Positions 14,696 through 64,000 are shown, counted from the stretch's first letter. The stretch is 64,000 nt of DNA from an uncultured bacterium (GCA_963705505.1 CAVPJU010000008.1:129774-193773), one strand, 5' to 3'. A program made the numbers and translations. Notes: generated from the letters alone by a model not told the origin.

Positions 14696-14702
14696 CGTCA
14701 AT

Positions 14703-14750
14703 CTTCCGGAGTACAGTAACAATGTTGCAATCAGCAAAAGGCGTCCGGTT
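14703..14750 (+). repeat. Copy of the tRNA-associated repeat motif
   Basis: 38/48 identical by manual alignment to 59515-59562, which follows tRNA-Arg. Confidence 0.85.
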
Positions 14751-14770
14751 CTTGCGCACGCAAGCAATTT

Positions 14771-45801: not shown

Positions 45802-45965
45802 AGGCGTGAACTCACTTAAGCGTGATATGAGCTGAATATCTTAAGCATTTACCCCTTATAATAGCATATAGCAAACGGGGCTCTTAACTAATAAGTCTAA
45901 GAAATTATATAAAAAAGCAAGCCCTTTTATTTTTCACAGACGAGACTGTCGAGTGATGAGAGTGT

Positions 45966-47213: not shown

Positions 47214-47965
47214 CTTACGCCTAACCTGCGCCTGATTGTACGCGGAATATTACGCAACAGAATATATAAGGGGAATGTTTTCGTCAGCATAAGATCGAAG
47301 AGCTTCTCCCCCCTTAAGTAGTAAGCGTCCACACGCTCGAGAGCGTAGAGACGGCTTTCCTCCGTCAATAAGCCTAGTTTATCAGAACAGGCGCATTTAA
47401 AATTCTGTCCCGCGATTTCAAGACTCTTCTCGTCATACCTGCCATAGGGATAGGCGAAGGACAAAACAGGGACACCCAGATTGTCCTCGATGATATCCTT
47501 AGATCCCTTTATCTCGTATCCGACGGCGGCCGTATCGAGTGCGGTAAGGTCCGGGTGCGAAATAGTGTGAGCGCCGAAATCGATCCCTGCGTCTCTCATT
47601 ACTTTTATCTCTCCCCAGCTTAACATCTCGCTCCCGCTGAGCGGCGGCAGACGGTCATCCGGGCCCGATTTATGTGAGTCGCCCACGGTGAGAAATACAG
47701 TAGCCGTCATGCCGTGCTTCTCCAGGACAGGAAATGCCTCTTCGCATACGCTCCTGTAACCGTCGTCGAAGGTTACGACGAAAGATTTGTCCGGGAAGGG
47801 TTTACGCTCACGGATCAGCTCCGCTGCGTCGGTCAATTTAACCGTCCTGTAACCGTTACGGCGGAGCTTCTCCATTGAACGCCTGAACAATTCCGGGCTG
47901 AAAGATATAACCGAGCGGCTGTCGTCTATTTTATGAAAAGTCAAAACCGGAAGATATGCGGCCAT
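47210..47965 (-). CDS. Polysaccharide deacetylase
   Basis: TFDDGY, HTISH, FAYPYG motifs; overlaps the GT4 by 4 bp. Confidence 0.9.
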   Translation of the reverse strand: MAAYLPVLTFHKIDDSRSVISFSPELFRRSMEKLRRNGYRTVKLTDAAELIRERKPFPDKSFVVTFDDGYRSVCEEAFPVLEKHGMTATVFLTVGDSHKSGPDDRLPPLSGSEMLSWGEIKVMRDAGIDFGAHTISHPDLTALDTAAVGYEIKGSKDIIEDNLGVPVLSFAYPYGRYDEKSLEIAGQNFKCACSDKLGLLTEESRLYALERVDAYYLRGEKLFDLMLTKTFPLYILLRNIPRTIRRRLGVR

Positions 47966-48200
47966 CTGTTTTTCACATCCTTACAATTGCTCGATCAGAC
48001 AGTAGTATCTAACAGAGCGCGAATAAAGGCAATATTGATTCAATTTGAAACCATTGCAAGGAATCCGAAACTGGAATTTCCAAACCATTCATGCGGGAAT
48101 TCGTCCCCAGTGTTCCATTAAGTTATTGTGAGGATGAAGGCATTCCGGGAATGACTATTTAAACAAAGGGAAACGGTTGATCCTTATGAATCACTTCATT

Positions 48201-49784
48201 CTAATTGCGGGTTCCCTTGAGGATATGAAGGGGTAAGATTTTCGCGGAAGCTGTAGTATAAGGCTCCCTGCGGACTACGCGCAGGGTATTGCCCTGTAGC
48301 CATGCGTCCGACATTATGTCTCCTCCCGGATAGGGCTGCAAGGCTTGAAACACAGCAGTTACGACAGTGTTTTCATCAACGTCACCCACCCTGGGACTCA
48401 CAACGATATTCACCTTTGGCAGACCTCCCTCTTCTTCCTCGACCAGCTGGTAGTCGGTGGGGCTGCCCCCGAAGCGGCCGGGGAGGACCTCCTCGAGGAG
48501 CCGAAGCAGCTCGGTACCGAGAAAGCTCACGCCCTCGCTCGTAAGCTTGTCGTAGCTCCTTATGCCCGAGAGGTGTGTGGAATAACCGAGTCCCCCGATG
48601 CCGCATCCGCAGTCCCTCTCTTCCAAAATCCCGTAGTCGTCGCTCTCGACGTTGAGCATCAGCTTGGGACAGAGCGGGAGCACCGTGGTATATAACAGGG
48701 CCCCTATCGTCAGCCCGTCCGCTCCTATCTGTCTCGGCAGCTGTATCACGGCTATTTTATCGGTAAGAAGGTGGACCTCGTCGAGCTGCCGGGCGTCAGC
48801 GCAGGCAAGTCCAAGCGTGCCGACCTCGGTCATGGAGTAATGACAACAAGCCCGGCAGCCGGCGTCATCCACTATCTTTGCCTTGGCCTCGGTGTAAGGC
48901 TCTCCTCCGAAGCGAAAGAAAGTGTCCGAGATGTCGAGTCCCCTTTCCCCGGCTGCAAGGCATAACCTCACACCGGAGCTTACATTCGTATCCATGAGAG
49001 CAGGCTTTCCCTCCCTCTTTTTTCCCGCGAGCCAGTCCGCTATCCTCGGAGCATCCGCGAGCGAGACGTATTCGGGCACTGGCAGAGGATTTCCGAAAAT
49101 CCCGCTTGCGAGGAGAGTATATTTCGTGAAGGTGTAGAACTTCATGTTTTTAAGGCTGAACGAGAGCCTGCTCTGGGAGAACCACTTCTCGACCGGCAGC
49201 CCCAGCTTTGCGTAGCGGAGCACGAGCTTCATCCCCGCCGCGACCGGCGGAATCTCACGCCAAGCTACGCGCGGTCTGCCGGAGAGGCCGAAGGCGTCGA
49301 GAAATTCGTAGAAGTAAGCAGCCTCATGTGTGAGCAGATCGAGGTCGATGATAATTCTCGTGCCGGCGCTCCTCGACCCGCTGCTCCTCGCTTCATAGAA
49401 CCTGGCAAGGAAGGGGTTGTCGAAATCAGACGGCTCGGTTGAAAACTCGAGGCCGGGACGCGTCACCGGCTTACGTCCTTTAAATTCATCGAGCGTTACG
49501 TAAACACCTTCTTTATGCAGATTAGAGAGCGCCCCCTCGACGCCGTGACGCTTCACCTGCTCCGCGACGTCCCCGAACTCGGCCCCTGCGTGCCGGAGCA
49601 GCTTCGCGTATGGGCTTCTGGGGTTACCGTAAATGCCGGATTTCAGAATCTGCAGAAAGGACTCCTCCCTCCTCGCAAGCTGCGCAGTGAGCATGGTCCG
49701 GCAATCGGCAGGCGTTAAGGTATTGCGGAAAAAGTCCCTCAATCCCCACGCATACCTCCCGAATATTTTGAGATCATCGAGCAT
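48201..49784 (-). CDS. Phenylacetate-CoA ligase/CapK-like adenylate-forming protein
   Basis: SSGSRS (TSG-like), YSMTEVG, SDDYG, GIRSYD; ATG 49784 with GGAGA SD (ORF track starts 49946). Confidence 0.6.
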   Translation of the reverse strand: MLDDLKIFGRYAWGLRDFFRNTLTPADCRTMLTAQLARREESFLQILKSGIYGNPRSPYAKLLRHAGAEFGDVAEQVKRHGVEGALSNLHKEGVYVTLDEFKGRKPVTRPGLEFSTEPSDFDNPFLARFYEARSSGSRSAGTRIIIDLDLLTHEAAYFYEFLDAFGLSGRPRVAWREIPPVAAGMKLVLRYAKLGLPVEKWFSQSRLSFSLKNMKFYTFTKYTLLASGIFGNPLPVPEYVSLADAPRIADWLAGKKREGKPALMDTNVSSGVRLCLAAGERGLDISDTFFRFGGEPYTEAKAKIVDDAGCRACCHYSMTEVGTLGLACADARQLDEVHLLTDKIAVIQLPRQIGADGLTIGALLYTTVLPLCPKLMLNVESDDYGILEERDCGCGIGGLGYSTHLSGIRSYDKLTSEGVSFLGTELLRLLEEVLPGRFGGSPTDYQLVEEEEGGLPKVNIVVSPRVGDVDENTVVTAVFQALQPYPGGDIMSDAWLQGNTLRVVRREPYTTASAKILPLHILKGTRN

Positions 49785-49846
49785 AGCGGCTCTCCATAAT
49801 CGGTCGTGTGTGTTCAGTGCGAAATACAATACCGGACGGCAGCATA

Positions 49847-50866
49847 TTACTTCCCCGCCTTTCCGGGGAGCCTCCCTAAAAACCTCCTGGCATTCAGACG
49901 ATAGCGTATTGCCGCCCACCTCATAAGCAAAACGTCCGGGAGCCACAGCGTCTTTCTTTTTCTTCCCAGCTGTTTACTGATAAAAGAGAAGAAATTATGA
50001 ACCCGCCACATGATTTTTTCGGGGGCAGTAATCGGACGGGCAAGCCCTTCAGTCTCGTATCCGAGTTCCCGAAGAAGGTCACCGGCCACGGACTCGAAAA
50101 TAACCCGGTCGCCTGCGGGCATCTCTTTTTTCCACCTCCCCTCATCCGAGCTGCCCATTCCCTTCATGGAATTGGTTATCTCCGATAGATTACCGTACAT
50201 GAGCGACGCGGCCTCCGGCTGGATCTGATTAACATTTAATACCTTCTCCGAGTAAGGTTCATCAAGGAACCCGCATACGACACCCATCGTTTCGCGGGTG
50301 TGATCGATAAGGGACTCAAAACTCACTTCAATATACCTGCCCGGTCCGGCCTCCCTGCCCGCACGACGGCCTGCGCTCACAAGCCGCTTCCAGGAAGTGG
50401 CGGCAACGAAAACATTTCCCGGTCCGTACCACCTCCCCATCGAGATGAGCGCAACGTCCCTCCCGTCGCGATAGATGTGAATTATCTTGCAGGACGGGAA
50501 TAACTCGATCAGAGTCGGTATCTCCGCCAAATACTGCGGAGTCTTGTCCCCCCAGCGGGGCTTGTTTTCTTTGCGCGCCCATTCCTCGAAAATCCGGGAT
50601 ACTATCTCCGCATAGCTGCGGCAGCCGGCAAACGAAGAGGGGTCGAGCGAAAGCCCGTAAGCCTTTACCCAATGGAGGTTCAGTATGATCTCGGCCAGTC
50701 TCACGGCTTCCCTGTCATTCTTCGGATTGCCGTAAGCTTTATAAAGCCAGGGGATGAACTGGGACTCCTGAGGGAACGTTATGTTCGGATGGGAACGCAG
50801 CAGGTCTCTTATCAGCTTCTCGCCGCTCTTGGGATACCCTACGATAAATATAGGGGATTTGGTCAT
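49847..50866 (-). CDS. Sulfotransferase family protein
   Basis: PIFIVG.PKSG, WGDKTP, IHIYRDGRDV, GRWK motifs. Confidence 0.85.
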   Translation of the reverse strand: MTKSPIFIVGYPKSGEKLIRDLLRSHPNITFPQESQFIPWLYKAYGNPKNDREAVRLAEIILNLHWVKAYGLSLDPSSFAGCRSYAEIVSRIFEEWARKENKPRWGDKTPQYLAEIPTLIELFPSCKIIHIYRDGRDVALISMGRWYGPGNVFVAATSWKRLVSAGRRAGREAGPGRYIEVSFESLIDHTRETMGVVCGFLDEPYSEKVLNVNQIQPEAASLMYGNLSEITNSMKGMGSSDEGRWKKEMPAGDRVIFESVAGDLLRELGYETEGLARPITAPEKIMWRVHNFFSFISKQLGRKRKTLWLPDVLLMRWAAIRYRLNARRFLGRLPGKAGK

Positions 50867-50935
50867 GGTCGAAGTACCGTTTCCGGCTTATCCGGTCTCA
50901 ACTCCGCACACGCTACCCGATGCCTTACGCTTTCG

Positions 50936-51919
50936 TTACTCAATGAACTCCTTTTCGAGGAGCATCTTCCTCAAGCGTGAGTCGCCCGGCTTGACCGGGT
51001 ACCTGACTTGTTTTAAAACGACATCGCCGAAGTCAGTCCTGCATGTGGACATATAGGCGAACATCATGAGATAACGCGGCTTGACCGCATTCCTGCTCCC
51101 GTAATGAAAGCATGCGCTGTTGTCCAGGAAAAGCACCGTCCCCGCAGGGTAGCAAAGCTTAATCAATTCGCTTTCGGGAACTATAGAATAGACCTTATCA
51201 TCGGATACACGGTGACCCCCCATCCTGGTGTGATAATTACCGAGCCCTCTGCATACTTTCTCCGATACGGACTTGGGCAGAAAACAGAAAGGCCCCATCT
51301 CAATCGTTACATCCCTTAGCAGGACAATCGCATACGCCATGGGCTTGTCGTGATAATCGAGATGAAAGAGCTGGCTCGCCCTCAGGGGCGCATCGGATGA
51401 GTTATCGAATTTGTTCCAGGACTCTATCAGCCTGACGCCATAGGGCATGGAGTAGGAAAGCATGGGAATGAAGCCCAGGTAACTGCATATAGTCGAAAGA
51501 ACATCGGAAGAAGTCGCGAAGTTCAGAATCGACGGGTATTTCTCGAAATGCTCTTCCTTGATCAGCTCCTGAAAAAAGGGCCTTCCGAAATCCTGACGCT
51601 TCACTCCGCCGCGTTCCTCTATGATCTTGTCAGACTCCGCAAGCAGCTCCCGAAGATAAGGCAGCTTCCCCGAAGTATCGATAGCCCATCCGTCTTTGAT
51701 CTCGTTGACGGGAGCGGACGGATTTCCGTTCTCCTCGATGAGCTTTCTGAAATTCTCTTGGTATTGCCTCTTTCTATACTCATGGTATTTGCCGAACCGC
51801 AGGGTGTTATAGGCCCTTGCGATCCTCGTCGTATTATCGACTCCTACCGCCTGCATCGAATCGCGCTCAAGGAGTTTTGCAACCGGTTTAATCGCGGCGT
51901 CCATGGCTTTTCCGATCAT
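50936..51919 (-). CDS. Putative PhyH-like Fe(II)/2OG dioxygenase
   Basis: SQLFHLD (HxD), MGPF, GTVLF.D...FHYGSR...R distal His and Arg. Confidence 0.6.
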   Translation of the reverse strand: MIGKAMDAAIKPVAKLLERDSMQAVGVDNTTRIARAYNTLRFGKYHEYRKRQYQENFRKLIEENGNPSAPVNEIKDGWAIDTSGKLPYLRELLAESDKIIEERGGVKRQDFGRPFFQELIKEEHFEKYPSILNFATSSDVLSTICSYLGFIPMLSYSMPYGVRLIESWNKFDNSSDAPLRASQLFHLDYHDKPMAYAIVLLRDVTIEMGPFCFLPKSVSEKVCRGLGNYHTRMGGHRVSDDKVYSIVPESELIKLCYPAGTVLFLDNSACFHYGSRNAVKPRYLMMFAYMSTCRTDFGDVVLKQVRYPVKPGDSRLRKMLLEKEFIE

Positions 51920-51954
51920 TTCATTCTCCCTCTCTCAATACTTCATTCCGAGTA

Positions 51955-53429
51955 CTAAACACCGATTGAGACAACCTTGGTCTCGAGGAATTCCTCAAGA
52001 CCCAGCCTGCCTCCTTCTTTCCCGAAGCCGCTGTGCTTGACCCCTCCGAAGGGTATATGCACCGCTCCGAGGCGGGCATTGTTTACCCCGACGAGCCCGT
52101 ACTCGAGCCCTTCCGACATCGCTATCGCCCTCGAATTATCGCGCGTATAGAAAAATGCGGCGAGCCCATAGGGGGAATCGTTGGCGCGGGAGAGGACCTC
52201 CTCGTCCGATTTGAACGTCGCGACAGGCGCCACGGGACCGAACGTCTCCTCATTCATTATAAGCATGTCGTGAGTTACGCGCGAGAGAATCGTCGGCTCG
52301 AAAGAAGAAACCTCTCGCAGAATTCCCCGTCCGTCAGGCGGCGCCCCCCGTTAAGGAGCCCGGCTCCTTTTGCAACGGCATCGCCGACATGTGCTTCCAC
52401 CTTCTCCATCCCCTCTTCGTCGATCAGGGGGCCCACGTCTACAGTCTCATCCAGCGGGTTCCCCGTCCTGAGCCTCTTCACAAGCCCCGTGAACGTCTCG
52501 GTGAATCGCTCGGAGACGGATTCATGGACGTATATTCGGTTAAGGGCGACACACGTCTGCCCCGAATTCTGGAATTTGGAGGCGACGGCATGCGAGGCAG
52601 CAAGCTCTATGTCCGCGTCCCCGAACACTATGAAAGGGGCGTGCCCGCCCAACTCGAGTGTAATCCTCTTTAAGTCCGCGGACGCGCCGCGCATGATCTT
52701 TCTCCCGACTTCGACCGAGCCGGTGAAGCTCACCTTCCTCACTTTCGGGTTTCTGAGGATCTCCTTCCCGACCTTGTCGGGATGGACGTGTAGTCACGAG
52801 GTTAGCGACGCCCGGACGGGATTCCGGCTTCCTCGAATAATTCGAATATGGCGATCGCCGATAGGGGCGTCTGCTCGGGGGGTTTTACGACGACCGTGCA
52901 GCCGGCAGCCAGGGCGGGTATTACAGGCCTCGTGATCCCCGCCGACGGGTAGTTCCAGATCGTGATTATTCCGGCTACCCCCACGGGCTGCTTTATAGCA
53001 TAAAAACGCCTGCCGGGGAGAGGTGAGGTGAATATTTCGCCCGAGACTACGTTTAGATTCTTCGGCGAAGTACTTTATAAACTCGGCGGAATACCCGATT
53101 TCGGCGCGCGATTCCCTTATCGGCTTCCCCTCTTCCATCGCTATTAATCTCGCAAGTTCCTCGCTCCGCCCGAGCATCAGGTCGCGTACCCTCAGGAGCA
53201 GGTCAGCGCGGTCCTTTGCGGGAAGCTTCGACCATGATGGGAAAGCGTCATACGCTGCCTCTATAGCTTTCTCCGTGTCACGGGCGTCCGCGTCGGGCAC
53301 AGAAGCGATTACTTCGCCCGTCGCCGGGTTCCTTACGGTGAAGCTCTTCCCCGTCCCGGCTTCGACCCATTTGCCGTCGATGTACATCCTTTGCACTTTC
53401 GTTTTTTTTGCTTTTAATTTGTCTTGCAC
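51955..53429 (-). pseudogene. GabD-like NAD(P)-dependent aldehyde dehydrogenase split by several frameshifts (possibly assembly errors)
   Basis: Colinear fragments in different frames carry WNYP, KPPEQTP, FTGS, LELGG, FQNSGQTC, EETFGP, PFGGVKHSG. Confidence 0.85.
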
Positions 53430-53461
53430 GACTTTTACCTTATTTTAATGTACACCGCCCT

Positions 53462-53860
53462 TCAGGACTCGAGTATTTCTTTTAATATCTCGAGCTCCCG
53501 CTCTACATTCGATACGAGCTTTTCGAATAGTCCCGGCGGAGCGTTATCGGGCTCGGACTGAGTAAAATAATATGCTACCTCTCCGTTTTGACGAAGCTCG
53601 ACGAGACGCGAGGACGATTTTTGATAATGTCCGCCCTTTCCGAAGTAGAAATCGATGTTCCCATCTTCTTTCGCAGCCCCGACAAATAGGTCGATCACTC
53701 CCCGGGGCGTCTTTACGCGGTATATGTCGCCATCTTTCTCGGGCGCCTCGAGGGCAAAATCCACGGTCCAAAGGTGCAGGTTCTCAGGATCGGAGATGAA
53801 ATTCCACGCTTTATCGAATGTTGTATTAATAGTTACGCTCAAAGTTTTCGATCTCCTCAA
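53462..53860 (-). CDS. SRPBCC/polyketide cyclase-like protein
   Basis: SVTI.....AW.FISDPENL..W start and C-terminal EL..LK.ILE helix. Confidence 0.72.
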   Translation of the reverse strand: MRRSKTLSVTINTTFDKAWNFISDPENLHLWTVDFALEAPEKDGDIYRVKTPRGVIDLFVGAAKEDGNIDFYFGKGGHYQKSSSRLVELRQNGEVAYYFTQSEPDNAPPGLFEKLVSNVERELEILKEILES

Positions 53861-53947
53861 TCTTTCTCCCTCTCTTCAGACAAATTACCATGAAGGATGC
53901 GTCTGGCAGAGCTAACTGTATTAATTCTGTACGTGATGCCGCGAGCA

Positions 53948-54892
53948 TCATACATGGCCGAATGTATGCGTTTCGAGAATTGCAAACGCATTTTGCCGCA
54001 GGTGCTCGACATTCGTAGTCCCCGTCAGCACTGTGGATACCGCAGGGTGCGACATGGCGAACCTGTATGCCTCAGCGGGACGCGAAAACTCCCGCTCCGT
54101 TATGACCGAATTTTCACTGCCGCTTCTGAGGCCGGATCTCATCGAACCCCACCCATTCTGCGGGTTCAACCCCAGGATATTGCTTCGAACATCCTTTTGA
54201 GATAAGGCAATATCTCTTGCTGCGGCCATGCATATTACTCCCACGTTCTTCTTCGCAGCCAGATGCAAAATACCGTCTCCTGCTGTAGGATTCGCCGGAC
54301 TATAAGCGACCATAACGGAATCGAACAAGTTGTCGGATAGAGCCATTTGGAGCATCTCATGATTCCTGTCTACGATCGTTGACTCCGAGATGCCTAAAAA
54401 GCGGAACTTTCCGTCATCCCTCAACTTCTCCAGAGTCGGCATAAGGGAATCCGTAACCGAGCGGTAGATACCAGGCGTCACCGCATGGAATTGGATAAGA
54501 TCGACCGTATCCACACGGAGCTTCTTTAAACTCCGCTCTACCGATTTAACAACGTCTTCGGGTCTTGAAATCCGACCGTGCGTAACAGGAAGAAACTTTG
54601 TAGCTATTATGAATCTATCCCGCGGAACGTTCCTCAACACCCCTCCCAGTATTGCTTCACTCTCCCCATATGATGGGGAGGTATCAAAGAGATTAATTCC
54701 AATATCAAGAGCGCTCCGGACCAGATCCATGATTTGCACTTTGAGCGCGAAACTCCTCTGGCCGAAGCGGTTTACCCCTCCCGAGCCGAGCGACAGAGAC
54801 GACACCATGAGCCCGGTCCGTCCTAATTCCTTGTTCCGCATGGGTAGTTCTTCTCTCCGCATGACCGTCATAAATTTCCTTTCTGTTATCAC
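53948..54892 (-). CDS. Aldo/keto reductase
   Basis: LGRTGL.VS, GINLFDTS..YG, IATK, SL.KL..D.VDL.Q.H; start may be ATG 54841. Confidence 0.88.
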   Translation of the reverse strand: MITERKFMTVMRREELPMRNKELGRTGLMVSSLSLGSGGVNRFGQRSFALKVQIMDLVRSALDIGINLFDTSPSYGESEAILGGVLRNVPRDRFIIATKFLPVTHGRISRPEDVVKSVERSLKKLRVDTVDLIQFHAVTPGIYRSVTDSLMPTLEKLRDDGKFRFLGISESTIVDRNHEMLQMALSDNLFDSVMVAYSPANPTAGDGILHLAAKKNVGVICMAAARDIALSQKDVRSNILGLNPQNGWGSMRSGLRSGSENSVITEREFSRPAEAYRFAMSHPAVSTVLTGTTNVEHLRQNAFAILETHTFGHV

Positions 54893-55911
54893 AGCTCTCT
54901 TAATTTTTTCCGAACTCTAAAACCTGGCATTACCTCTCTTGCAAAGAGTTCAGTAGACCTTAGGCAGAGCGCCTGGCTCTGGGTAATGAAGTTAAGCGAG
55001 CACAGGAGATAAGTAATCTCCAATCTCCCGGCGAGCTCTTTAATGCCGCTGGCTACAGTCTCGGGAGAGCCCAACAGGAGAAAATCGTCCAGAAACCGGT
55101 CGAAGCTGAAGTTCTCCTCGCCGCCGTACTTCGCGATGAGAGCCGCTTTCAGGTCCGGCGCGCGGTACTTAATGAATTCCATGAAAGGCCCTTCCATTTC
55201 CCGCCTCGCTTTCTCGTCCGTATCCGATACGTAAATGAACCGGTTGACGATGAACTCGGGCGCACTGCCGTTGCGATTTTTCCGGACAAGATTTCCGAAG
55301 TAGGTTTGAGCGGTTTTCTCAAGCTCAGAAGACGTCCTGGTGGCCCCCGTTATCGCGGAGTAACCCTTCTCCGCAGCAAAAAGAAGCGTCTCCTCCGATA
55401 CCGCGACGAGCGAGACCGGCGGATGGGGTTTCTGCAAGGGCTTGGGGTACACAGAGACTTCGGGGATCCGGTGGAATTCCCCCTCGTATGAAAACCGCTC
55501 CTCGGTCCAGGCTTTAATTATTATCTCGATCGCTTCCCTGAATCTCTCCCTCGTCTCGAAAAGCGGCGAGTGAAACGCCAGATGGCACTCTTCATCGAGG
55601 CTCGCCCGCGCGGCGCCGAAGTCGAGACGCCCCCCGCTCAATATATCGAGGGTCGCGGTGTCCTCGGCGAGATGTATAGGGTGGTCGAGGGACAATATGC
55701 GCGCCGCCGTGCCGATGCGTATCCTTTTTGTCCTCGCAGCCAGCGCCGCAGCCAGGCTCAGGGGGGAGGAATAGAGGAGGTCCCCGTGTCTGAAATGCCT
55801 TTCCCCGAGAACCACGGAATCAAAGCCGAGCTCCTCCGCATAAACCATCTGGTCAAGGATTTCGTGATAGCTCCCGTCCCGCGTGCCCATTATGAATAAG
55901 CCGAATTTCAT
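54889..55911 (-). CDS. Luciferase-like (LLM class) flavin-dependent monooxygenase
   Basis: MKFG, AEELGFDS, ERHF, HPIHLAE..ATLD.LSGGR, PKPLQKPHPP. Confidence 0.9.
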   Translation of the reverse strand: MKFGLFIMGTRDGSYHEILDQMVYAEELGFDSVVLGERHFRHGDLLYSSPLSLAAALAARTKRIRIGTAARILSLDHPIHLAEDTATLDILSGGRLDFGAARASLDEECHLAFHSPLFETRERFREAIEIIIKAWTEERFSYEGEFHRIPEVSVYPKPLQKPHPPVSLVAVSEETLLFAAEKGYSAITGATRTSSELEKTAQTYFGNLVRKNRNGSAPEFIVNRFIYVSDTDEKARREMEGPFMEFIKYRAPDLKAALIAKYGGEENFSFDRFLDDFLLLGSPETVASGIKELAGRLEITYLLCSLNFITQSQALCLRSTELFAREVMPGFRVRKKLREL

Positions 55912-55963
55912 TTATCCCTCTATGTACCGCCCCTTTTTATCCGGGTGACGGCCGCACCGGGTT

Positions 55964-56959
55964 TTAAATGTCTTTTAAGTGAGGCAGCATGTGTTCGGTA
56001 AACAACCTCATGGAGTTAAGGCATTTCTCGTGCTCAACCGTATAGTAATTGAATGTTAAAATCAGACTCCTGAGATCGATTTCGTCCTTTAAACGCATGA
56101 TCTTCTTCATGCAGGAATCGGGAGTGCCGAATATGCAGACATCGTTGAATAGCAGGTCGTACGTAATCTCATCGTCCGGAAGAAATAAAAAATCCCTGAT
56201 CACGGTGTTCTTCCTGTGGATGAAACCCATGATCGTATCCCTCGTGTCCTCCACGGCCTTCCCGTCGGTCTCCGCAACATAGATAAAACGATTGACCGGG
56301 TGCACAATGTTCCTGCCGCTGTTTCCGTTGAGGAGCGCATTATACCTCTCCTGAGTATTCCTGAGCACGGGGACGGTTTGAGCGCCGGCCAGGAGCAGGG
56401 GTAATCCCATTTCCGCGCCGAATTTCAAGGTTTCCTGACTGATCCCCACCAGATAAATCGGGGGATGGGGTCTCTGGACGGGCTTGGGCTCTACAGAAAT
56501 ATCCGAAATGTTGTAGTAGCCGTTATAAGAGAAGCTTTCCTCCGTCCATGCCTTAATGATGACATCGATCGACTGCTCGAAGCGGCCTCTCGTCTCTTCC
56601 GTTCTTACGCCGAACGCGTTCTGGTAGAGCTCATTCTCCCCGATCCGCGCAACACCGAGGTCGAGCCTCCCGCCCGATATAATATCCACTGTCGCCGCTC
56701 CTTCCGCGACGTGTATGGGGTGGTCGAGCGGAAGAAGCCTCGCTCCCATCCCGATACGAATCCGCTCCGTGACCGAGGCTATGTATGACGCGGCTACGAA
56801 GGGAGACGAAAAGAAGTTCCTCCCTTCATGGTCGGGATGAAAATGCCTCTCCCTCAGCCATACGGAATCGAACCCCGCCTCGTCCGCGTAGCGGACCTGG
56901 TCTATCAGATCAGCATGATCGGACGTTGCTGATCCTGTCGCGTAAAAACCTATCTTCAA
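55964..56959 (-). CDS. Luciferase-like (LLM class) flavin-dependent monooxygenase
   Basis: MKIG, ADEAGFDSVW.RERHF, HPIHVAE..ATVD..SGGR, PKPVQRPHPP. Confidence 0.9.
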   Translation of the reverse strand: MKIGFYATGSATSDHADLIDQVRYADEAGFDSVWLRERHFHPDHEGRNFFSSPFVAASYIASVTERIRIGMGARLLPLDHPIHVAEGAATVDIISGGRLDLGVARIGENELYQNAFGVRTEETRGRFEQSIDVIIKAWTEESFSYNGYYNISDISVEPKPVQRPHPPIYLVGISQETLKFGAEMGLPLLLAGAQTVPVLRNTQERYNALLNGNSGRNIVHPVNRFIYVAETDGKAVEDTRDTIMGFIHRKNTVIRDFLFLPDDEITYDLLFNDVCIFGTPDSCMKKIMRLKDEIDLRSLILTFNYYTVEHEKCLNSMRLFTEHMLPHLKDI

Positions 56960-57067
56960 ATAAATCCTCCGAATTCATTACTCACCCGGGCTCCGCTCGG
57001 TCAGCCGAAATACGTTTAAGTCTCCTTTCCAATGCGTCCGGTTCGAACTTTCAGAAGTAATCCGGCT

Positions 57068-57931
57068 TCAGCGAACCCGCTCGGGGTAGCTCCGCGATGA
57101 CGCTTCTATCCTGAGCCCCTTCACCTCATTGACGAATGCGGTCAGGTGGGACGACAGGGCGTCCAATAGTCTCCTCCCTTTCTCGCGCGTGGCTTCCGAG
57201 TCCCGCTTTTTCTCGTGCGCTGCAGGGCTTACGTACTCAAAATCGTCCAGACCTAAAGTAATATTCTCAGCGCCGTTAAACCCCACTGTTATACCCGTCC
57301 CGGCTCTCTTGTAAAATGATTCTCCGAGCCATTCAGGCGCATGCACCCTGTAGCCGTGAGACAGGAAATTATCGGTTTTAAACCTTTCCTCCATGAGAGA
57401 CATCGCCACCGAACACTCTATATCGCTTGAAAGACGATCGGGAGCCGAACCCATGATCTCCATTGCCTGCTTGTTTTCCCTCCCGCCGTAAAACGCCACG
57501 AACGCCCCGGTCTTCGTGCGGAGCGACAGCAGGACCTCCTCCGCAACGGCGACGTTCGAGCTGTGGAGCGACACGAATATGAGCTTATTGAACCCGTGAT
57601 AGATAAGGGACCGGCTGATCTCTTCGAGTATGAGTCTGTAGGTTTCCGCCCTGAACGATATCGTGCCGCACCCTTCCCCTTCCCTGCCGAAGTGCTCGGG
57701 CGCGTACCCGAACGGCATTAGCGGTGTATGGAGGACGTCCGTTTCGCGGGCTGTGCGCTCGACGACCGCTCCGCTGACGAGCCCATCGAGACCGAGAGGC
57801 GTAAAAGGGTTGCCGTGCCTCTCGCAGCTCCCCATCGGAATCAATATCATGTCCTGCCCTTCCCTCACCCTCTTCTGAATATCCCCCGTCCCAAGCTCCT
57901 GTATATTAAGGATTTTCTTTCCATTTTTCAT
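57068..57931 (-). CDS. Creatininase family amidohydrolase
   Basis: PMGSCERHG..PLGLD, GTIS, SLHSSN (GHGGN-like), IECS (ETS-like), AT.EKG. Confidence 0.85.
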   Translation of the reverse strand: MKNGKKILNIQELGTGDIQKRVREGQDMILIPMGSCERHGNPFTPLGLDGLVSGAVVERTARETDVLHTPLMPFGYAPEHFGREGEGCGTISFRAETYRLILEEISRSLIYHGFNKLIFVSLHSSNVAVAEEVLLSLRTKTGAFVAFYGGRENKQAMEIMGSAPDRLSSDIECSVAMSLMEERFKTDNFLSHGYRVHAPEWLGESFYKRAGTGITVGFNGAENITLGLDDFEYVSPAAHEKKRDSEATREKGRRLLDALSSHLTAFVNEVKGLRIEASSRSYPERVR

Positions 57932-58059
57932 CTTTCAATTCTCCTCATAACGTATGATAACCGGCAGCATAATCATTGATGATAATTAAGTACTAATAGT
58001 CCTCACGCCGACTCAATATTTATACCATTTATGATCATACTATAACAAGAAATTCCGCA

Positions 58060-59214
58060 TCATCCCCCGTCTAATACATCTTGAAGTGCTTTTTCCGTCT
58101 CGTCAACCATCTTTTCAATGCCGAAATTTCTTACAATTATGTTCCGTATTTTCAGCGGGTCCATGTCAGAGAGCCCGTCGAGCATAGTCCTCATACCATT
58201 CGCAAGAAGTCGAGGGTCACCCGGCGGGACCGCTATTCCCGATTCTCCCACAATCCTTGCGGAGTCCCCTACGTCCGTGACCACACACGGTTTGCCGCAC
58301 GCCATCGCCTCTCCTATGACGTTCGGGAAACCCTCGCTATAAGACGAGGAACAGAGAACATCGATAGAGTTGAGAACAGTCGGCATATCTTTTTTTGCCC
58401 CCGCCCAAATCAGATGATCACGTAATCCCAAATCCCGGCTCATGAGCTCCAGTTTTTTCCTATATGCCTTATCTCCGTCCCCTATGCAAACAAAACGAAC
58501 ATCTCTCCGTTCCGTCAATAGCCGGGAGCATGCTTCCAGGAACGTGATATGCCCCTTAACCAAATCCAGACGGGCAATTACGCCTATGAGCGCCTCGTTT
58601 CCGCAAACATCCCATTCCCTCCGCAGCCGCTCCCGTGCTTCGGGATCCGGCTTGAAGTCATCCGTATCGATACCGTTATCGATGACCAGCCCTTTAGCGC
58701 ACCTGTAACCTGTTTTTACACGGCTCGCCAGTCCTGCTTCCGAATTAGCGATTATAAGGGGAACGAAGGACGAAATCCACTTGTTTATATAGAGTGCCGT
58801 TGAATCATTGCGAGAGTAGCTTCTCGGTCCAGTTGCCGGTAAAGAGCCTCGGACACCCCATACGAGTTTAGTGCCGGACGTCGTGCTGACGGCCAGCCAT
58901 GATATGAACCTCGCGGCATGACCGCTAAAACTGTAGAGGATTTGAACCTCTTCTTTCTCCAGAATCCTTCTTAATTCGAGTGTTGCTTCGATCAAACCCA
59001 TAACCCCAGTGAAAATATTTCCGGGTTTCTGTGCAAGAAGAGTCTTTATTCGTATCGGTTCCCCGCCCCAGATGTGCTCCCAATGCGTATCGCTTTCATA
59101 AAGTGCGAGCACGGATACGTCGTGCCCCCTCTTTTTCAATCGAGGAGCAAGGTATGAAAGCTGGCGTATGACGCCTCCCATTCCCAAATTTTGAATGAAG
59201 ATAAGGATTCTCAT
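58060..59214 (-). CDS. Glycosyltransferase family 4
   Basis: NGID, ARL..VKGH, EGFPNVIGEAMACG, TDVG; ATG 59214 chosen (ORF track 59310). Confidence 0.9.
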   Translation of the reverse strand: MRILIFIQNLGMGGVIRQLSYLAPRLKKRGHDVSVLALYESDTHWEHIWGGEPIRIKTLLAQKPGNIFTGVMGLIEATLELRRILEKEEVQILYSFSGHAARFISWLAVSTTSGTKLVWGVRGSLPATGPRSYSRNDSTALYINKWISSFVPLIIANSEAGLASRVKTGYRCAKGLVIDNGIDTDDFKPDPEARERLRREWDVCGNEALIGVIARLDLVKGHITFLEACSRLLTERRDVRFVCIGDGDKAYRKKLELMSRDLGLRDHLIWAGAKKDMPTVLNSIDVLCSSSYSEGFPNVIGEAMACGKPCVVTDVGDSARIVGESGIAVPPGDPRLLANGMRTMLDGLSDMDPLKIRNIIVRNFGIEKMVDETEKALQDVLDGG

Positions 59215-59434
59215 CGAAATCCCTCGCAGGACATTAGTCCAGGTTAATTTACGCACAAGATGGCCGGGAAGACGCGTAATACCCCCGTCCCTCATCACAA
59301 CCAAATTCACTGAGAAAAACTCATCACTACCGGATATAATTAATATACAATACTCAACAAACCGGCGTCTATTGATGGACAGGCGAAAGTCTGTTATAGA
59401 TATTAGCGTTTACAACTTCCTTTAGGCCAATCAC

Positions 59435-59508
59435 GTCCCCGTAGCTCAGAAGGATAGAGCACAGGATTCCTAATCCTGAGGCCGGAGGTTCGAATCCTCT
59501 CGGGGACG
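59435..59508 (+). tRNA. tRNA-Arg (anticodon CCT)
   Basis: Acceptor stem GTCCCCG/CGGGGAC, anticodon arm CAGGA-TTCCTAA-TCCTG, GGTTCGAATCC; CCA not encoded. Confidence 0.96.
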
Positions 59509-59802
59509 CAGCACTTCCCGAAGTACAGTAGCAACGTTGCATTTAGCCATCGGCGTCCGGTTGCTCTATTCATCGCAACCGTTCTCTCGGGGACGCAACT
59601 TCTTCCGAAGCACATTGACGCTGTTGCAATTAACCAATGGTGTCCGATTCCTCCTATTCGTCGAAATCGTTCTCTCGGGGACGCACACACATAGTGTGAT
59701 TTTCGATTTCCGCCATCTCCTCTGCCGTACCGTTATGCATGACCGTGACCGTTCATCCTGAGACTGCTGAAGGAGGCACACATTCCCCGAAGTACGGTGA
59801 CC
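59497..59802 (+). repeat. tRNA-3'-end-anchored array of ~87-93 bp units
   Basis: Exact CTCTCGGGGACGCA at 59497, 59584 and 59672; degenerate fourth unit start near 59776 (GCACACATTCCCCGAAGTAC). Confidence 0.9.
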
Positions 59803-59862
59803 ATTTGGTTTGAAATTTTAAAAATATAATTAAGCGGTCGGTAGAAAACCTTTAACTAATCG

Positions 59863-60816
59863 TTATAGGGCTTGTTCATCATGTTGTTCCAGCCACTCCA
59901 GCATTTTGCTAACACTTCCGGTGGCCAGGGCAATGCTCGTATCCGCCGCGCCATAATACATGCGGATGATATCACCGCCGGGTTCAAGGGTATAACCGCA
60001 AGGAAAGACTACGTTGCCTACATCCCCGGACTGCTCGTACTGTTGTTCCGGGGCAAAGAACCATTCGTTGCTGCGTTTCAGGCAGAGCTCCGGTGTATGT
60101 AAATCAAACAGAGCCAGTCCGAGCCGGTAAATGCTGCCGCTCGCTGTCTGACGTACACCGTGGTAAATCACCAGCCAGCCCTGCGGGGTTTGTATCGGCG
60201 GGGGGGAGAGGCCTATTTTATTCGCATCCCACCACGCACCACGGCGGGCTACAAGCATCAGCTTGTGGTTGCCCCAATGTCGAAGATCCGGCGAGTAGGA
60301 TATCCACATGTGCGCGCGGGGAGCACTGACAGGACGATGGATCAAGGCCCAAAGGCCGTCAATACGATGAGGCAGCAAGGCCGCATCTTTATTTTCCGGC
60401 GTCATGATCACTCCGTAACGCTCGAAGCTGGCGAAATCTTCTGTAAACGCCAGGGCCACGCCCGGACCGTCGCGTGTGAAGGCGGTATAGGCAATGGCAT
60501 ACTTCCTTAATTCGGGAACGAAGGTAATGCGCGGGTCTTCAATACCCCAAAGTTCTTCCGGGTAGCGCTCGGGATCAGCCAATAGTGAAGGCTGGGGATC
60601 AATCTGCCATTTATCCACGCCATTGGCGGAACGGGCCACACAAAAGTGAGAATGCCCCCGCCGATCCTCCACACGACATAAGAGCAGTGTGGTCCCGTCC
60701 GGCAGCAATGTGGCACCGGGGTTAAAAACGCTATGGACCGGATACGGCCAATCGGCGGCGGTCAAGATCGGATTAAGTTCGTGACGGTGAAAGAGTTCAG
60801 AATATTTATTGCTCAT
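59863..60816 (-). CDS. GH130-like glycoside phosphorylase/hydrolase
   Basis: NPIL, VFNPGA, EDPRI, NKDA, HRP, YHGV, NVVFPCG, YYGAAD motifs. Confidence 0.88.
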   Translation of the reverse strand: MSNKYSELFHRHELNPILTAADWPYPVHSVFNPGATLLPDGTTLLLCRVEDRRGHSHFCVARSANGVDKWQIDPQPSLLADPERYPEELWGIEDPRITFVPELRKYAIAYTAFTRDGPGVALAFTEDFASFERYGVIMTPENKDAALLPHRIDGLWALIHRPVSAPRAHMWISYSPDLRHWGNHKLMLVARRGAWWDANKIGLSPPPIQTPQGWLVIYHGVRQTASGSIYRLGLALFDLHTPELCLKRSNEWFFAPEQQYEQSGDVGNVVFPCGYTLEPGGDIIRMYYGAADTSIALATGSVSKMLEWLEQHDEQAL

Positions 60817-63092
60817 TTAGATAGTGCCTCCACTGTTAGAATAGTACCCTCAGCCAGGCGCAGCTCCAGCAGGGCCTGGAGAAAGGCAAGCGTGGACTCC
60901 GCGCCCTGATTCTCGTTCGGACGGTCCGGATGCAATCCGTCCCGGCAACCGCCCGTCGTCGGGTCGTATATGGAAAGGTTTAAATCGTTGCGCCCCAGGA
61001 ACCACTCGAAAGCACGCCGGGCTTCCCTGCGCCAGCGCTTGTCTCCAGTGCTCCGGTAAGCTTCGAGGCAGGCTGAGACCATGGTTTGCGCCTCTACCGG
61101 CTGCTGATCGAAGCGGGCGCGCTCGGAGCCCCGCTTATAAAAACCGTTGGAGCCGATAGGGATGAAATGACCTCCCGGCCCGGCAGCACGCTGCAAGTCG
61201 GCCAGCCAACCGAGCGACTCCAGCCCGGCTTCGGTCATGGCGTTATTCGGGATCCACTGACCGCACATGAGCATGGCCTGCGGCAAAACGGCGTTGCAAT
61301 ATGACATCTCATCTTCATACCAGCGCCATTCGTCCGAGCGGCTGTTTTGATATAAGGCCAGCAATCGCCCGGCCAATTCATCCCGGACCTGGCCAGCCCT
61401 GCTGTCACCGGAATACCGCCGTAGATACTCGTGGATGCCGATCAGCGTGAATGCCCATGCACGCGGGCTGGTCGTGTCGAGAATGGCCGGCAGCGCCTGC
61501 TCGAACACCATGCCTGCTATACTCCGGTAGGCCGCCATGCTGGATCTGCCTAATACGGTGGACAACGCCAATAACGCGCGGCCATGGCTGTCTTCCGAAC
61601 CGATATCTTCCAGCCAATGGCGCTGATAATCCAGAAAGTTGCGAAACCGTCCGGTCTCGGCATTGAAGGCATACAAGATAAAAGCGAGATAACGGGGAGC
61701 CAGTTCCAACGCCTCTCCGTTGCCCAGTTCATCCAGGAGCGTACTCACTATCAGAGCGCGGGCGTTGTCGTCGGTGGTGTAGCCCTCGCGATAGTTGGGC
61801 ACCGTGAAAAGGGCGTGTTGCAGCATGCCGGTCTCGTCCGTCATGTGGCGCAGGTGATCGAGTTTGAGAGGGGGCAGTTCACTCCGACGCTCGTCGTTCG
61901 ATTTACCGGCAAATCCAGGAGGAATGAAATGCCGGCGTTCGGATCGGGCGCGTTCAAAACTCTCCATGTAGAGTCGCGCCACCTGCGGCCAAATCATCTC
62001 CCGGCCAAACAGATAAGCCCGCTTGCGCATGGCGTGGCGCTCGGACTCGTTGTCGAGCAGGTAGATCACCTCCCCGGCCAGAGCCGCCGGATCTTTGAAC
62101 GGCACCAGCGTGCCGCGACCTTCGGCCAGCATCTCTTCCGCATACCAATATGGTGTCGAAATCACTGCCTTGCCCGCCCCCAGCGTGTAGGCCAGGGTGC
62201 CGGAAACGATCTGCGCTTCGTTGAGATAGGGTGTGATGTAAATGTCCGCCGCGCCAATAAACTCTATAAGCTCCTCCAAACTGACAAAGCGGTTGTAGAA
62301 GATCACGTGATCTTCCACACCTTTTTCCTGAGCCTGCCATTGCAGGGACAACCTGTACGTTTCGCCCTCGTGCTGAATCACGTGGGGATGTGTCGCGCCA
62401 ACTATCATGTACACCACGTTCGGGTAGCGTTCCACGATGGCAGGCAAGGCGGCAATGACGTTTTCTATTCCCTTGTTGGACGAGAGCAAGCCGAAACTGA
62501 GCAAAACGATCTTGCCCTCCACGCCAAAAAGGTCTTTGTGGTAACTCGGATCCACAAACGGCAAATCGGGAATTCCGTGAGGGATCAGATCGATCTTCTC
62601 CGGCAGCACACCATAGACCTCCTGCAGAAATTCCGCGCCGCGCTCGCTCATGACGACCAATCGGTCGGACAGGGCGGCAACTTCTTCCAGCACCCGCCGC
62701 TGATCGGGACCGGGGTCTTGCAAAATGGTATGCAGAGTCGTGACGATGGGCATACGCAATTCGCGTAAGAGGGCCAGGATATGACTGCCTGCCTTCCCGC
62801 CGAAGATGCCGTATTCGAATTGCAGGCACACCAGGTCGACATTATTGATATTCAGGAAGTCGGCGGCGCGGCGGTAGGAGTCAATGTTCTTCTCGGTAAG
62901 TTCGAACCGGACGCGGGGCGGGTATGAGTATCCCCCATCGATGTCGTTGACCGGTAGAGCAATGCACGTCGTTCCAGTGTATTCGGCAGCGATAGCCTCA
63001 CACAAGTCTGTCGTGAACGTGGCGATGCCGCACTGACGCGGCAGGTAATTCCCGATGAATGCAACGCGGTTAATGGTTAAATGGTCGTCCAT
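60813..63092 (-). CDS. GT4 glycosyltransferase fused to a C-terminal (alpha/alpha)-barrel-like domain
   Basis: PRQCGIATF, FGLL..NKG, SGTL; C-terminal GYTTDDNARAL, FDQQP, NQGAEST; ATG 63092 with AGGAG SD; overlaps GH130 by 4 bp. Confidence 0.88.
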   Translation of the reverse strand: MDDHLTINRVAFIGNYLPRQCGIATFTTDLCEAIAAEYTGTTCIALPVNDIDGGYSYPPRVRFELTEKNIDSYRRAADFLNINNVDLVCLQFEYGIFGGKAGSHILALLRELRMPIVTTLHTILQDPGPDQRRVLEEVAALSDRLVVMSERGAEFLQEVYGVLPEKIDLIPHGIPDLPFVDPSYHKDLFGVEGKIVLLSFGLLSSNKGIENVIAALPAIVERYPNVVYMIVGATHPHVIQHEGETYRLSLQWQAQEKGVEDHVIFYNRFVSLEELIEFIGAADIYITPYLNEAQIVSGTLAYTLGAGKAVISTPYWYAEEMLAEGRGTLVPFKDPAALAGEVIYLLDNESERHAMRKRAYLFGREMIWPQVARLYMESFERARSERRHFIPPGFAGKSNDERRSELPPLKLDHLRHMTDETGMLQHALFTVPNYREGYTTDDNARALIVSTLLDELGNGEALELAPRYLAFILYAFNAETGRFRNFLDYQRHWLEDIGSEDSHGRALLALSTVLGRSSMAAYRSIAGMVFEQALPAILDTTSPRAWAFTLIGIHEYLRRYSGDSRAGQVRDELAGRLLALYQNSRSDEWRWYEDEMSYCNAVLPQAMLMCGQWIPNNAMTEAGLESLGWLADLQRAAGPGGHFIPIGSNGFYKRGSERARFDQQPVEAQTMVSACLEAYRSTGDKRWRREARRAFEWFLGRNDLNLSIYDPTTGGCRDGLHPDRPNENQGAESTLAFLQALLELRLAEGTILTVEALSK

Positions 63093-63523
63093 GACGAGTT
63101 TCTCCTTCCTAAAATCCCCTGTTGCTATCTCCTCGGCCAATTGGTATAAACAGGCGGTCAATAACCTAACACCTCTGCCATATCCAGACAAAATTGGGAT
63201 AGAGTGTTTACTTTTGGGAAACCGAAGTGCGAAGGATTATATCATTAATCTAAATAATACACCCGCTATCGGCATCAGATCGTGCCGTGTGCGGGAGAAT
63301 ATCCGACTTTCTTCTTTAAGAAGTCCAATCTTTGAAGTGTCGATATCGTTCGTATTAGAATACCTTCTCATTTATTGGGTTCAAAACATTATTCCAGCCG
63401 GGCTTCATCGGATCAGATTAAATTCCAGACACAACTCTTCCAGTTTCCGGATATATGCAGTCATCTGAAATAATTTACTTGAAGAGTACGATTAAGCAGA
63501 GTGTTAGGCGGCATATGCAGCGG

Positions 63524-63745
63524 CTATCTCTTCTTGTTCGCAAAAAGCAGGAGCGCGCCTCCAACCACTATCGCCCCCACGCCTGCCCATACCGGGACGT
63601 TGACCGTTTCCTTGTCCTTTACCGACAGCTCGATCGGGCCCAGCTTGGCCTCGTGAGTCTCCTTGGTGTAGCTGAAACTGCCATACACCAGCCCCAGGAT
63701 GCCGGCCACTATCAGTACTATTGCTGCAATCTTGACTGAATTCAT
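63524..63745 (-). CDS. Small two-TM membrane protein
   Basis: 73 aa, two hydrophobic helices around a KLGPIELSV loop; GAGGA SD. Confidence 0.75.
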   Translation of the reverse strand: MNSVKIAAIVLIVAGILGLVYGSFSYTKETHEAKLGPIELSVKDKETVNVPVWAGVGAIVVGGALLLFANKKR

Positions 63746-63806
63746 CTCGTGTCCTCCTCTCTATCTTTTTCTCTTGAGTAGAAATTTTCAATGCTAAGAC
63801 GACAGG

Positions 63807-63915
63807 CAGTAACACTATTGCAATCAGTGAAGGGCGTCCGATTCCCCGCTCGCTCGGAATCGTACAAACACACTACGTGTGCTCGGGGAAGCACACATTA
63901 TTCGAAGCAATTGAT
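63807..63915 (+). repeat. Distal copy of the tRNA-associated repeat (3' half of one unit, then a degenerate new unit start)
   Basis: 63807-63843 is 31/37 identical to the motif after tRNA-Glu; CTCGGGGAAGCACACA at 63882 matches 59674-59689 with 1 mismatch. Confidence 0.8.
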
Positions 63916-64000
63916 AGAATTGTATTATTTCAGAATAGTACGGTTCCCATATGAGTTCAGGAAGTTTACTCCGTACTATTTATGGAGGCTCATTTATAAT

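Follow-up and report, generated by a model that had tools for sequence, protein, structure and literature searches.

How did three genes come to lie between two pieces of what looks like a single copy of a short repeat? The question is raised by a 64,000-nucleotide stretch of DNA from an uncultured bacterium (GCA_963705505.1, CAVPJU010000008.1:129774-193773), here called the window, which corresponds to G000:C8:129774-193773 of the source genome (G000) and ends where contig C8 ends. Downstream of its tRNA-Arg(CCT) gene, the window contains tandem copies of a tRNA-linked repeat of ~88 nt (the unit) and then a ~4-kb gene block, which has the 5′ part of a unit on its left and the 3′ part of a unit on its right. 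The first-pass annotation, made from the sequence alone, had taken this arrangement to mean that a cargo was captured inside one unit, with a crossover near the heptamer CRGTRAC, and that the array of units might serve as an integron-like capture platform mobilised in trans. We compared the window with 41 related genomes (their genera labelled g1, which is the genus of G000, g4, g5, g2 and g6) and with the contigs of four public metagenome runs (X1-X4). We put the chance at somewhat better than even that the block is a decayed, integrase-less islet in a tRNA-linked plasticity zone after tRNA-Arg(CCT), not a cassette within one unit.

A gene block between two pieces of a tRNA-linked repeat

The tRNA-Arg(CCT) gene (59435-59509, plus strand), called by both ARAGORN and Rfam, is followed on the same strand by two intact units in tandem (59511-59685), one of 87 nt at 59511-59597 and one of 88 nt at 59598-59685. 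They scored 67.5 and 53.4 bits, respectively, against R1, a covariance model for which we aligned 26 copies of the unit. Each consists of GG[CT]GTCCGRTT and a hairpin and ends in CTCTCGGGGACGCA, which is the 3′ end of tRNA-Arg(CCT) itself and is present three times at this gene. The sequence CTCGGGGACGC has four exact copies in the window, and the overall number of repeated matches was reached in none of 100 shuffles of the window. Searching the window with Rfam at the gathering score returned three tRNAs and nothing else.

A CACACATAGTGTG hairpin (59686-59698, plus strand) closes the array, and similar hairpins lie 3′ of tRNA-Arg(TCT), tRNA-Arg(ACG) and tRNA-Ser(GCT). Next comes native flank that contains a degenerate copy of the tRNA end (59767-59778) and the truncated 5′ part of a unit (59779-59801), ending in CGGTGAC (together 59699-59801, plus strand). 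On the far side of the block, the 3′ part of a unit (63807-63868, plus strand) runs from CAGTAAC to GGCGTCCGATT and a hairpin. It most resembles the unit after tRNA-Glu(TTC), a single copy (14697-14770, plus strand; 50.9 bits against R1) that has a terminator-like hairpin at its end, reads CAGTAAC at the unit position of the heptamer, as had been noted in the first pass, and lacks a copied tRNA 3′ end. Then follow a CACACTACGTGTG hairpin, the tRNA-end-like CTCGGGGAAGCA and a second truncated unit start (63869-63917, plus strand), which form a direct repeat of 59765-59801 (repeat family D5); the tRNA-end-like stretch and unit start at 63882-63917 are 75% identical to 59765-59792. The 5′ piece, the 3′ piece and the further degenerate unit start were thus all present as first annotated, and each junction is crossed by a metagenome contig (59769-60902 by X4 contig 24 and 63680-63999 by X1 contig 7).

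Between the two pieces, scans of open reading frames (ORFs) against Pfam recovered the three minus-strand genes that had been described, and detected no integrase or transposase between the junctions. The GH130 gene (59863-60816; PF04041, E 4.6e-53) is preceded on its strand by the GT4-fusion gene (60813-63191, with the probable true start near 63092; assigned with Pfam and NCBIfam), and the third gene (63524-63745) encodes a 73-aa membrane protein that matched no family. The GT4 enzyme is fused to a C-terminal part of 395 aa (window 60816-62000, minus strand), for which neither Pfam nor NCBIfam had a matching family and for which the best match in a sequence search of solved structures in the PDB, 7tem, was weak (E 6.8e-6 over 94 residues); the fusion is kept alongside GH130 in three genera. 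We considered a foreign origin on the basis of composition and rejected it: G+C content was within the native range, as was G+C content at third codon positions (GC3), which was 0.585-0.716 for the three genes compared with a genome mean of 0.643 (sd 0.072, 729 long ORFs).

The block appears to be a mosaic, and its left repeat piece a relic

Nucleotide alignment with relatives divided the block into two parts. The first is a conserved module of the GH130 and GT4-fusion genes (59821-63259, minus strand). The second is a segment with the membrane-protein gene and its flanks (about 63478 to 63806, minus strand), which is 92-94% identical to a locus near tRNA-Phe in two g1 genomes, G004 and G009, with homology stopping at 63807; the segment is native to that other locus. 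Because 63478-63807 is homologous to this separate locus, the block is a mosaic of two unrelated segments and not one cargo.

The same homology corrects the right-hand repeat boundary. R1 reported a full-length unit at 63783-63871 (67.8 bits), a match that proved misleading: true unit sequence starts at ~63807, because the letters before it (63783-63806) belong to the membrane-gene segment. At the membrane-gene loci themselves R1 found no unit in G004 and one weak match in G009 (17.5 bits, E 0.0044). The heptamers at the two junctions, CGGTGAC on the left and CAGTAAC on the right, differ at two of seven positions. In G004 and G009 the sequence CAGTAAT lies 4 nt beyond the right break; the join is inexact, however, and microhomology at CAGTAA is no more than a possible cause of the right junction.

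The left junction could be traced in another g1 genome, G003, whose flank after the array can be aligned with 59686-59801, degenerate tRNA end and truncated unit start included. Past this shared relic G003 has a different gene and no cargo, and within 22 kb downstream of it we found no unit match. Because the same piece stands in the G003 flank with neither cargo nor partner, the left fragment is an old relic in the ancestral flank that was not made by insertion of the block. (The fragment is too short for detection by R1, even at E<=10 with filters off.) Hence the repeat pieces, genes and heptamers around the split are as originally observed, and a single cargo within one unit is not, given two segments and an ancestral left piece.

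An empty site exists in a further g1 genome, G007, in which tRNA-Arg(CCT) is followed by about ten units, the hairpin and flank, with no unit in the next 10.7 kb. Among the contigs of X1-X4 none skipped the 4-kb block and none spanned the whole stretch, although contigs drop rare variants and cannot exclude excision.

A version of the GH130-GT4 pair is carried by islets at tRNA genes

The GT4 fusion is present in 14 of the 41 genomes, and the module (from 59821 or 59885 to 63259) aligns at 86-89% nucleotide identity in g1 and g5 and at 71% in g4. The two genes are an old pair of the lineage. In six g1 genomes (G001, G002, G004, G005, G007 and G009) a partial tRNA-Ala(GGC), consisting of the 3′ part, lies ~20 nt from the GH130 stop codon, and the full tRNA-Ala gene lies 0.2-5 kb away on the other side of the module; the partial and full copies are identical at 29 of 31 positions in G005 and 38 of 47 in G007. 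The tRNA-Ala locus of G000 has neither the module nor a partial tRNA copy. Because the pair adjoins tRNA-Ala in most relatives, while G000 lacks it there, the block has moved.

In two relatives the module is bounded by tRNA-derived repeats. G003 carries it in a 7.5-kb islet between tRNA-Phe and a partial tRNA-Phe (45 of 45 nt identical); this islet holds an element of the IS3 insertion-sequence family, and none of its six scanned ORFs encodes a tyrosine integrase. In G013, which belongs to another genus, the order is tRNA-Arg(CCT), an intact unit, 275 nt, GH130, GT4, an IS3 remnant, the 3′ half of the tRNA and a second intact unit; the direct repeat here is 146 nt long with 140 identical positions, starts in the anticodon stem of tRNA-Arg and spans the whole unit.

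At its own tRNA-Arg(CCT), G003 has a 54-kb island. An intact integrase (PF00589, E 1.1e-36) stands at its start, directly after the tRNA; at its other end is a 47-nt partial tRNA, with three units, the hairpin and native flank behind it. The tRNA-Arg(CCT) gene is therefore an integration site of tyrosine-integrase islands in relatives, and the tRNA position at which the partial tRNA-Arg begins is the same in G003 and G013. The arm motif CAAAGAATAGCCAAAGAA (<=3 mismatches) occurs near both ends of the G013 islet, of the G003 tRNA-Phe islet and of the G003 54-kb island, and at the same tolerance is absent from the window. In G000 as a whole there were eight matches to PF00589, none of them in the window, and one full-length relative of the G003 integrase (C1:257934, 41% identical).

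The modules of G000, G003 and G013 share an orientation relative to the tRNA, and the only relatives' loci to which the module tail (59821-59885) could be aligned were the islets of G003 and G013; the other six loci align from 59885 or later. These comparisons indicate that a distinct version of the pair rides small islets whose boundaries are the last 45-47 nt of a tRNA and the arm motif (tRNA-Phe in G003, tRNA-Arg(CCT) in G013), and that G000 carries this islet version in the same orientation and at the same tRNA as G013, fused to a membrane-gene segment from another locus. Where this version is repeat-bounded (in G003 and G013), its boundaries are classical integrase att sites. Across the module loci of nine relatives (12.6-17 kb each), eight had no unit match at E<=0.1, the threshold used for these loci; relatives thus carry the genes with no unit halves at the junctions, and the G013 units are unbroken, which argues against the unit as the crossover site. 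With one two-gene glycoside module at three tRNA genes (Ala, Phe and Arg) in close relatives, it is evident that integrase-less islets move between tRNA sites in the lineage.

Another variable block lies 5′ of tRNA-Arg(CCT), between the conserved upstream flank and the tRNA (~13.6 kb, window 45801-59369). It contains genes for two luciferase-like monooxygenases, a creatininase-family gene and a GT4 gene, and G003 and G007 have no block at that position.

The unit core is found as a dispersed, self-nesting repeat

In the 26-copy alignment an invariant GGCGTCCGRTT stands directly 5′ of a 7-bp hairpin, three pairs of which show compensatory changes. At E<=0.01 R1 matched G000 70 times, on both strands and on nine of its ten contigs. 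Matches were found in 22 of the 41 related genomes: 15 to at least 107 per genome in all nine g1 genomes, 7-96 in all four g4 genomes, 46 in the sole g5 genome and a few in g2 and g6, with one of 16 genomes matched outside the family. The unit core is thus a high-copy dispersed repeat limited to a few sister genera, and this hairpin repeat is probably mobile. IS200/IS605 TnpA/TnpB proteins were ruled out as its mobilisers: G000 has no match to PF01797 (Y1, IS200-like transposase) or PF07282 (TnpB), and there was no correlation with the repeat over the 41 genomes, PF01797 occurring in three of nine g1, none of four g4 and not in the one g5 genome, and in many genomes that lack the repeat.

Only three of the 44 tRNA genes of G000 carry a unit, namely tRNA-Arg(CCT), tRNA-Arg(TCT) and tRNA-Glu(TTC). 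The number of units after tRNA-Arg(CCT) varies among relatives, with one in G013, two in G004 and one in G009, three in G003 (two model matches and a third read by eye) and about ten in G007 (six model matches, the others read by eye). At tRNA-Arg(TCT), TCCCTCCGGGCGCGCA is present twice as a copied tRNA 3′ end; behind this tRNA stands one unit, with a 16-nt repeat of the tRNA end flanking it. Located 10 nt upstream of the tRNA is the end of a truncated tyrosine integrase (128 aa, PF00589 E 2.1e-27) at L010:7316-7702 (C10:547315-547701 of G000). Hairpins of the CACAC-NTA-GTGTG type, with similar sequence after them (ATTTTACGA..), stand directly after four tRNAs or arrays, Arg-CCT, Arg-TCT, Arg-ACG and Ser-GCT (G000 C4:132-206, C4:5157-5250, window 59686-59698 and L010 ~7130), and recur within the composite repeats of contig C5 described below. 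A partial tRNA-Gly(CCC), the 3′ part, lies at C6:439210 (minus strand), 1.1 kb from the full gene at C6:438034, and marks another small tRNA-linked insert.

Units also nest within units, on contigs C5 and C9 and in G007 and G013, and the insertion point is always directly after GGCGTCCGRTT. Nesting in hairpin loops reaches three levels (C5:24164-24360, 28099-28300, 30791-30900, 50695-50900 and 52872-53060; C9:42653-42760; L043:5090-5230). On C9, units abut the stop codons of paralogous IPTL-CTERM-type secreted proteins, on the opposite strand (C9:25523-25853, 27982-28062, 38880-38972 and ~41500), and the unit appears to have been copied along with these genes.

Contig C5 carries a longer form, a composite of ~330 nt in which long inverted arms surround one unit; 12 near-identical copies, all on one strand, are separated by unrelated genes of both strands. 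G000 has 17 such copies altogether, the 12 at C5 11.5-58.6 kb (L001-L003) and others at C4:3.9 kb, C8:69.1 kb, C9:42.6 kb and C10:263.9 and 336.7 kb. The arms read GACAGCACAGAATTGGC ... GCCAATTCTGTGAATGTC, hairpins of CTTCTTTTCC..GAAAAGAAG and CACACGTAGTGTG lie 5′ of the composite, and some arms are closer to an arm of the neighbouring copy than to their own partner. Searching 60 kb of C5 with Rfam gave zero matches at E<=1, so that neither here nor in the window did any Rfam family fit the repeat.

This arrangement looked cassette-like, and cassette shuffling was ruled out by collinearity: C5 45.8-68 kb is collinear with contig C15 of G013 at 65-78% nucleotide identity across genera, and at one intergenic position both have a unit cluster. 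We found one indel between unit clusters in this comparison, with CBS and GNAT genes lying between two clusters on C5 where G013 has a single cluster. The C5 composites are therefore spacer repeats of an inherited region. An apparently relocated gene in G009 was in fact a paralogue within the IPTL-CTERM protein family, and a Pfam scan of 131 long ORFs (>=100 aa) on C4, C5 and C9 detected no integrase family. The end of C9 (43154-46658) and the start of C5 (1-3450) are 92-95% identical over ~3.5 kb, both encoding a ~1040-aa MtrC-like multihaem protein, and are either overlapping strain variants, in which case the two contigs are contiguous, or a recent duplication; synteny with G013 also places C5 after the end of C2.

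What made the arrangement at tRNA-Arg(CCT)

The account that we favour has two steps. A tyrosine integrase acting in trans would have delivered the GH130-GT4 module to tRNA-Arg(CCT). The islet would then have decayed into a mosaic as deletions, with short-homology or repeat-mediated recombination, removed the att arms, so that the block came to stand with an old truncated repeat relic on one side and a 3′ repeat piece on the other. It retains much of the original capture idea, namely that the block lacks a recombinase of its own, sits at a tRNA-linked hotspot and has moved, and drops from it the crossover in the unit and the integron-like platform. If correct, the block is an ordinary decayed islet, and it cautions that repeat fragments to the left and right of a set of genes need not mark a split site.

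Several observations weigh against this account. We infer integrase delivery in G000 from the relatives only, and G000 itself has no att arm or partial tRNA. On the right, the flank breaks off with the contig: the far end retains only a 12-nt degenerate copy of the tRNA end (63882-63893), the contig ends 107 nt further on, a search for overlapping contig ends found no partner for C8, and a search of G000 for the first 30 letters past the window, known from an X1 contig, gave no match. A direct repeat of 28-36 nt (tRNA-end-like sequence and unit start) flanks the block, which lies exactly between 5′ and 3′ unit pieces that overlap by the same heptamer, a placement that decay does not predict. 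The DNA after the left relic differs among G000, G003 and G007. Finally, in a 952-nt X1 contig (depth 6.4) a T arm like that of tRNA-Arg(CCT) is followed by the 20 letters CTCCGGGCGCGCTCCTTCTT and then directly by the sequence from 59786, so that the order in this contig is tRNA, 5′ part of a unit, cargo; a deletion between two unit starts would also give such an order. This variant contig (at window 59464-60018) has an anticodon and T-arm stretch like that of tRNA-Arg(CCT) and the acceptor 3′ strand of other Arg tRNAs (CTCCGGGCGCGC); its cargo DNA is 98.7% identical to the window, and the difference in the acceptor strand is unexplained.

An alternative is general recombination between repeats. 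Tandem and dispersed units and copied tRNA ends would then be portable homology, through which unit-bearing DNA, linear or circular, integrates or is deleted in Campbell fashion by homologous or short-homology recombination, and cargo would come to lie between pieces of units with no dedicated recombinase. We regard this as unlikely, and a role for repeat-mediated recombination nonetheless stays alive through the X1 contig and the tRNA-end-plus-unit-start motif on both sides of the block. It would account for that direct repeat, for the 146-nt repeat of the G013 islet, which covers a whole unit, for the X1 variant (by deletion between two unit starts) and for the CBS and GNAT genes between two clusters on C5 as opposed to one in G013. 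However, the repeats flanking the block are short and only 75% identical, the relic in G003 has no partner, and the native-like continuation (CATTTGG...) follows the left copy and not the right, the opposite of what a simple single crossover would leave.

A doubtful but more far-reaching idea is that the tRNA-linked units are themselves miniature integrative elements, or pairs of scars left by the ends of such elements, of a recombination system that targets T-arm-like hairpins. Behind it stand the unit core GTCCGATTCC, which mimics the tRNA T arm GTTCGAATCC, at least five independent nested copies exactly after GGCGTCCGRTT in the hairpin of another unit, and the tRNA end present in each unit at a tRNA, with which the gene could be rebuilt. 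If this were true, arrays after tRNAs would be landing pads, with blocks lodging between the 5′ and 3′ parts of units as in the window and the X1 contig, and the origin of the tRNA-linked repeats of Escherichia coli would be explained.

More improbable still is the original proposal, in which site-specific crossover takes place in the unit at CRGTRAC and a recombinase acting in trans makes the tRNA-linked array an integron-like platform for capture. It fits the left piece ending in CGGTGAC and the right piece starting with CAGTAAC, the second unit start after the latter, the order of the X1 contig and the lack of a recombinase in the block. Against it, the module has no nearby unit at eight of nine loci in relatives and lies between intact units in G013, G003 has the left relic with neither cargo nor partner, and the cargo consists of two segments in a mosaic. 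Among the 70 matches in G000 there was no other split unit, no contig of the four runs skips the block, the units are a high-copy dispersed repeat, gene order on C5 is shared with another genus, and the Pfam scan of C4, C5 and C9 detected no integrase.

That the contig was mis-joined at repeated units and the split is unreal is barely credible even though the contig stops where the window does, 85 nt past a repeat, and depth over 59614-59770 was low in all four runs (0.16-2.3), because contigs of two independent runs bridge both junctions and the G003 flank supports the contiguity of 59686-59801.

Comparison with known systems

Dispersed intergenic repeats of bacteria include repetitive extragenic palindromes (REPs) and the bacterial interspersed mosaic elements (BIMEs) that go with them, BOX elements and miniature inverted-repeat transposable elements (MITEs). 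The unit resembles these in its high copy number, its intergenic location, its hairpin with compensatory changes, its tandem and nested copies and its confinement to one lineage. It departs from them in that some copies are tied to tRNA 3′ ends, and from the pairing of REPs with REP-associated tyrosine transposases (RAYTs) in that G000 has no RAYT/IS200-type gene and the family does not track the unit across relatives.

Integrons combine an integrase, IntI, with gene cassettes bearing attC sites, and clusters of attC sites that lack the integrase are known as CALINs. Here too a structured repeat with a covarying hairpin lies between gene blocks in one orientation, with no recombinase within the blocks. 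However, in contrast to integrons there is no adjacent integrase, the blocks hold several genes on both strands, gene order is kept between genera, and the repeat is scattered genome-wide on both strands with no consistent site-bounded cassette, the window providing one candidate split among the 70 unit matches in G000.

Tyrosine integrases target tRNA genes with genomic islands, and derivatives that lack an integrase can be mobilised in trans, as are the cis-mobilizable elements (CIMEs) of streptococci. Williams reportedly distinguished, in 2002, anticodon-loop and T-loop sublocations of tRNA-targeting islands. The module of G003 and G013 matches this pattern, lying between a tRNA and a 45-47-nt copy of its 3′ half that starts in the anticodon stem; arm repeats are shared, and at the same tRNA a sister island has an intact integrase. 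The G000 block differs in missing both arms and the partial tRNA and in its distance of ~290 nt from the tRNA, from which it is separated by the array and some of the native flank.

The units after tRNA genes find their closest counterpart in the tRNA-linked repeats (TLRs) of E. coli (Egan and Landy 1978, Rudd 1999), which are described as lying directly after a tRNA or rRNA gene in one to five copies per locus, every copy closing with 18-19 bp that repeat the upstream tRNA's 3′ end exactly, and with a function that is not known (PMC8144298). Judged by position and sequence, the units here appear to be repeats of this kind: they lie directly downstream of tRNA genes (immediately after tRNA-Arg(CCT), tRNA-Arg(TCT) and tRNA-Glu(TTC)), singly or in tandem, and at the two tRNA-Arg genes have a copied 3′ end of the upstream tRNA. 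The copied end is 14-16 nt here as opposed to 18-19 bp in E. coli (PMC8144298), and one to about ten copies follow a single tRNA among close relatives. The unit core occurs, moreover, at dozens of sites that have no tRNA and in nested form, neither of which is mentioned in what we saw of the E. coli description (PMC8144298). Tandem repeats at tRNA genes would thus share their core with a dispersed, self-nesting hairpin repeat of a few sister genera, a link that could make the origin of TLRs testable.

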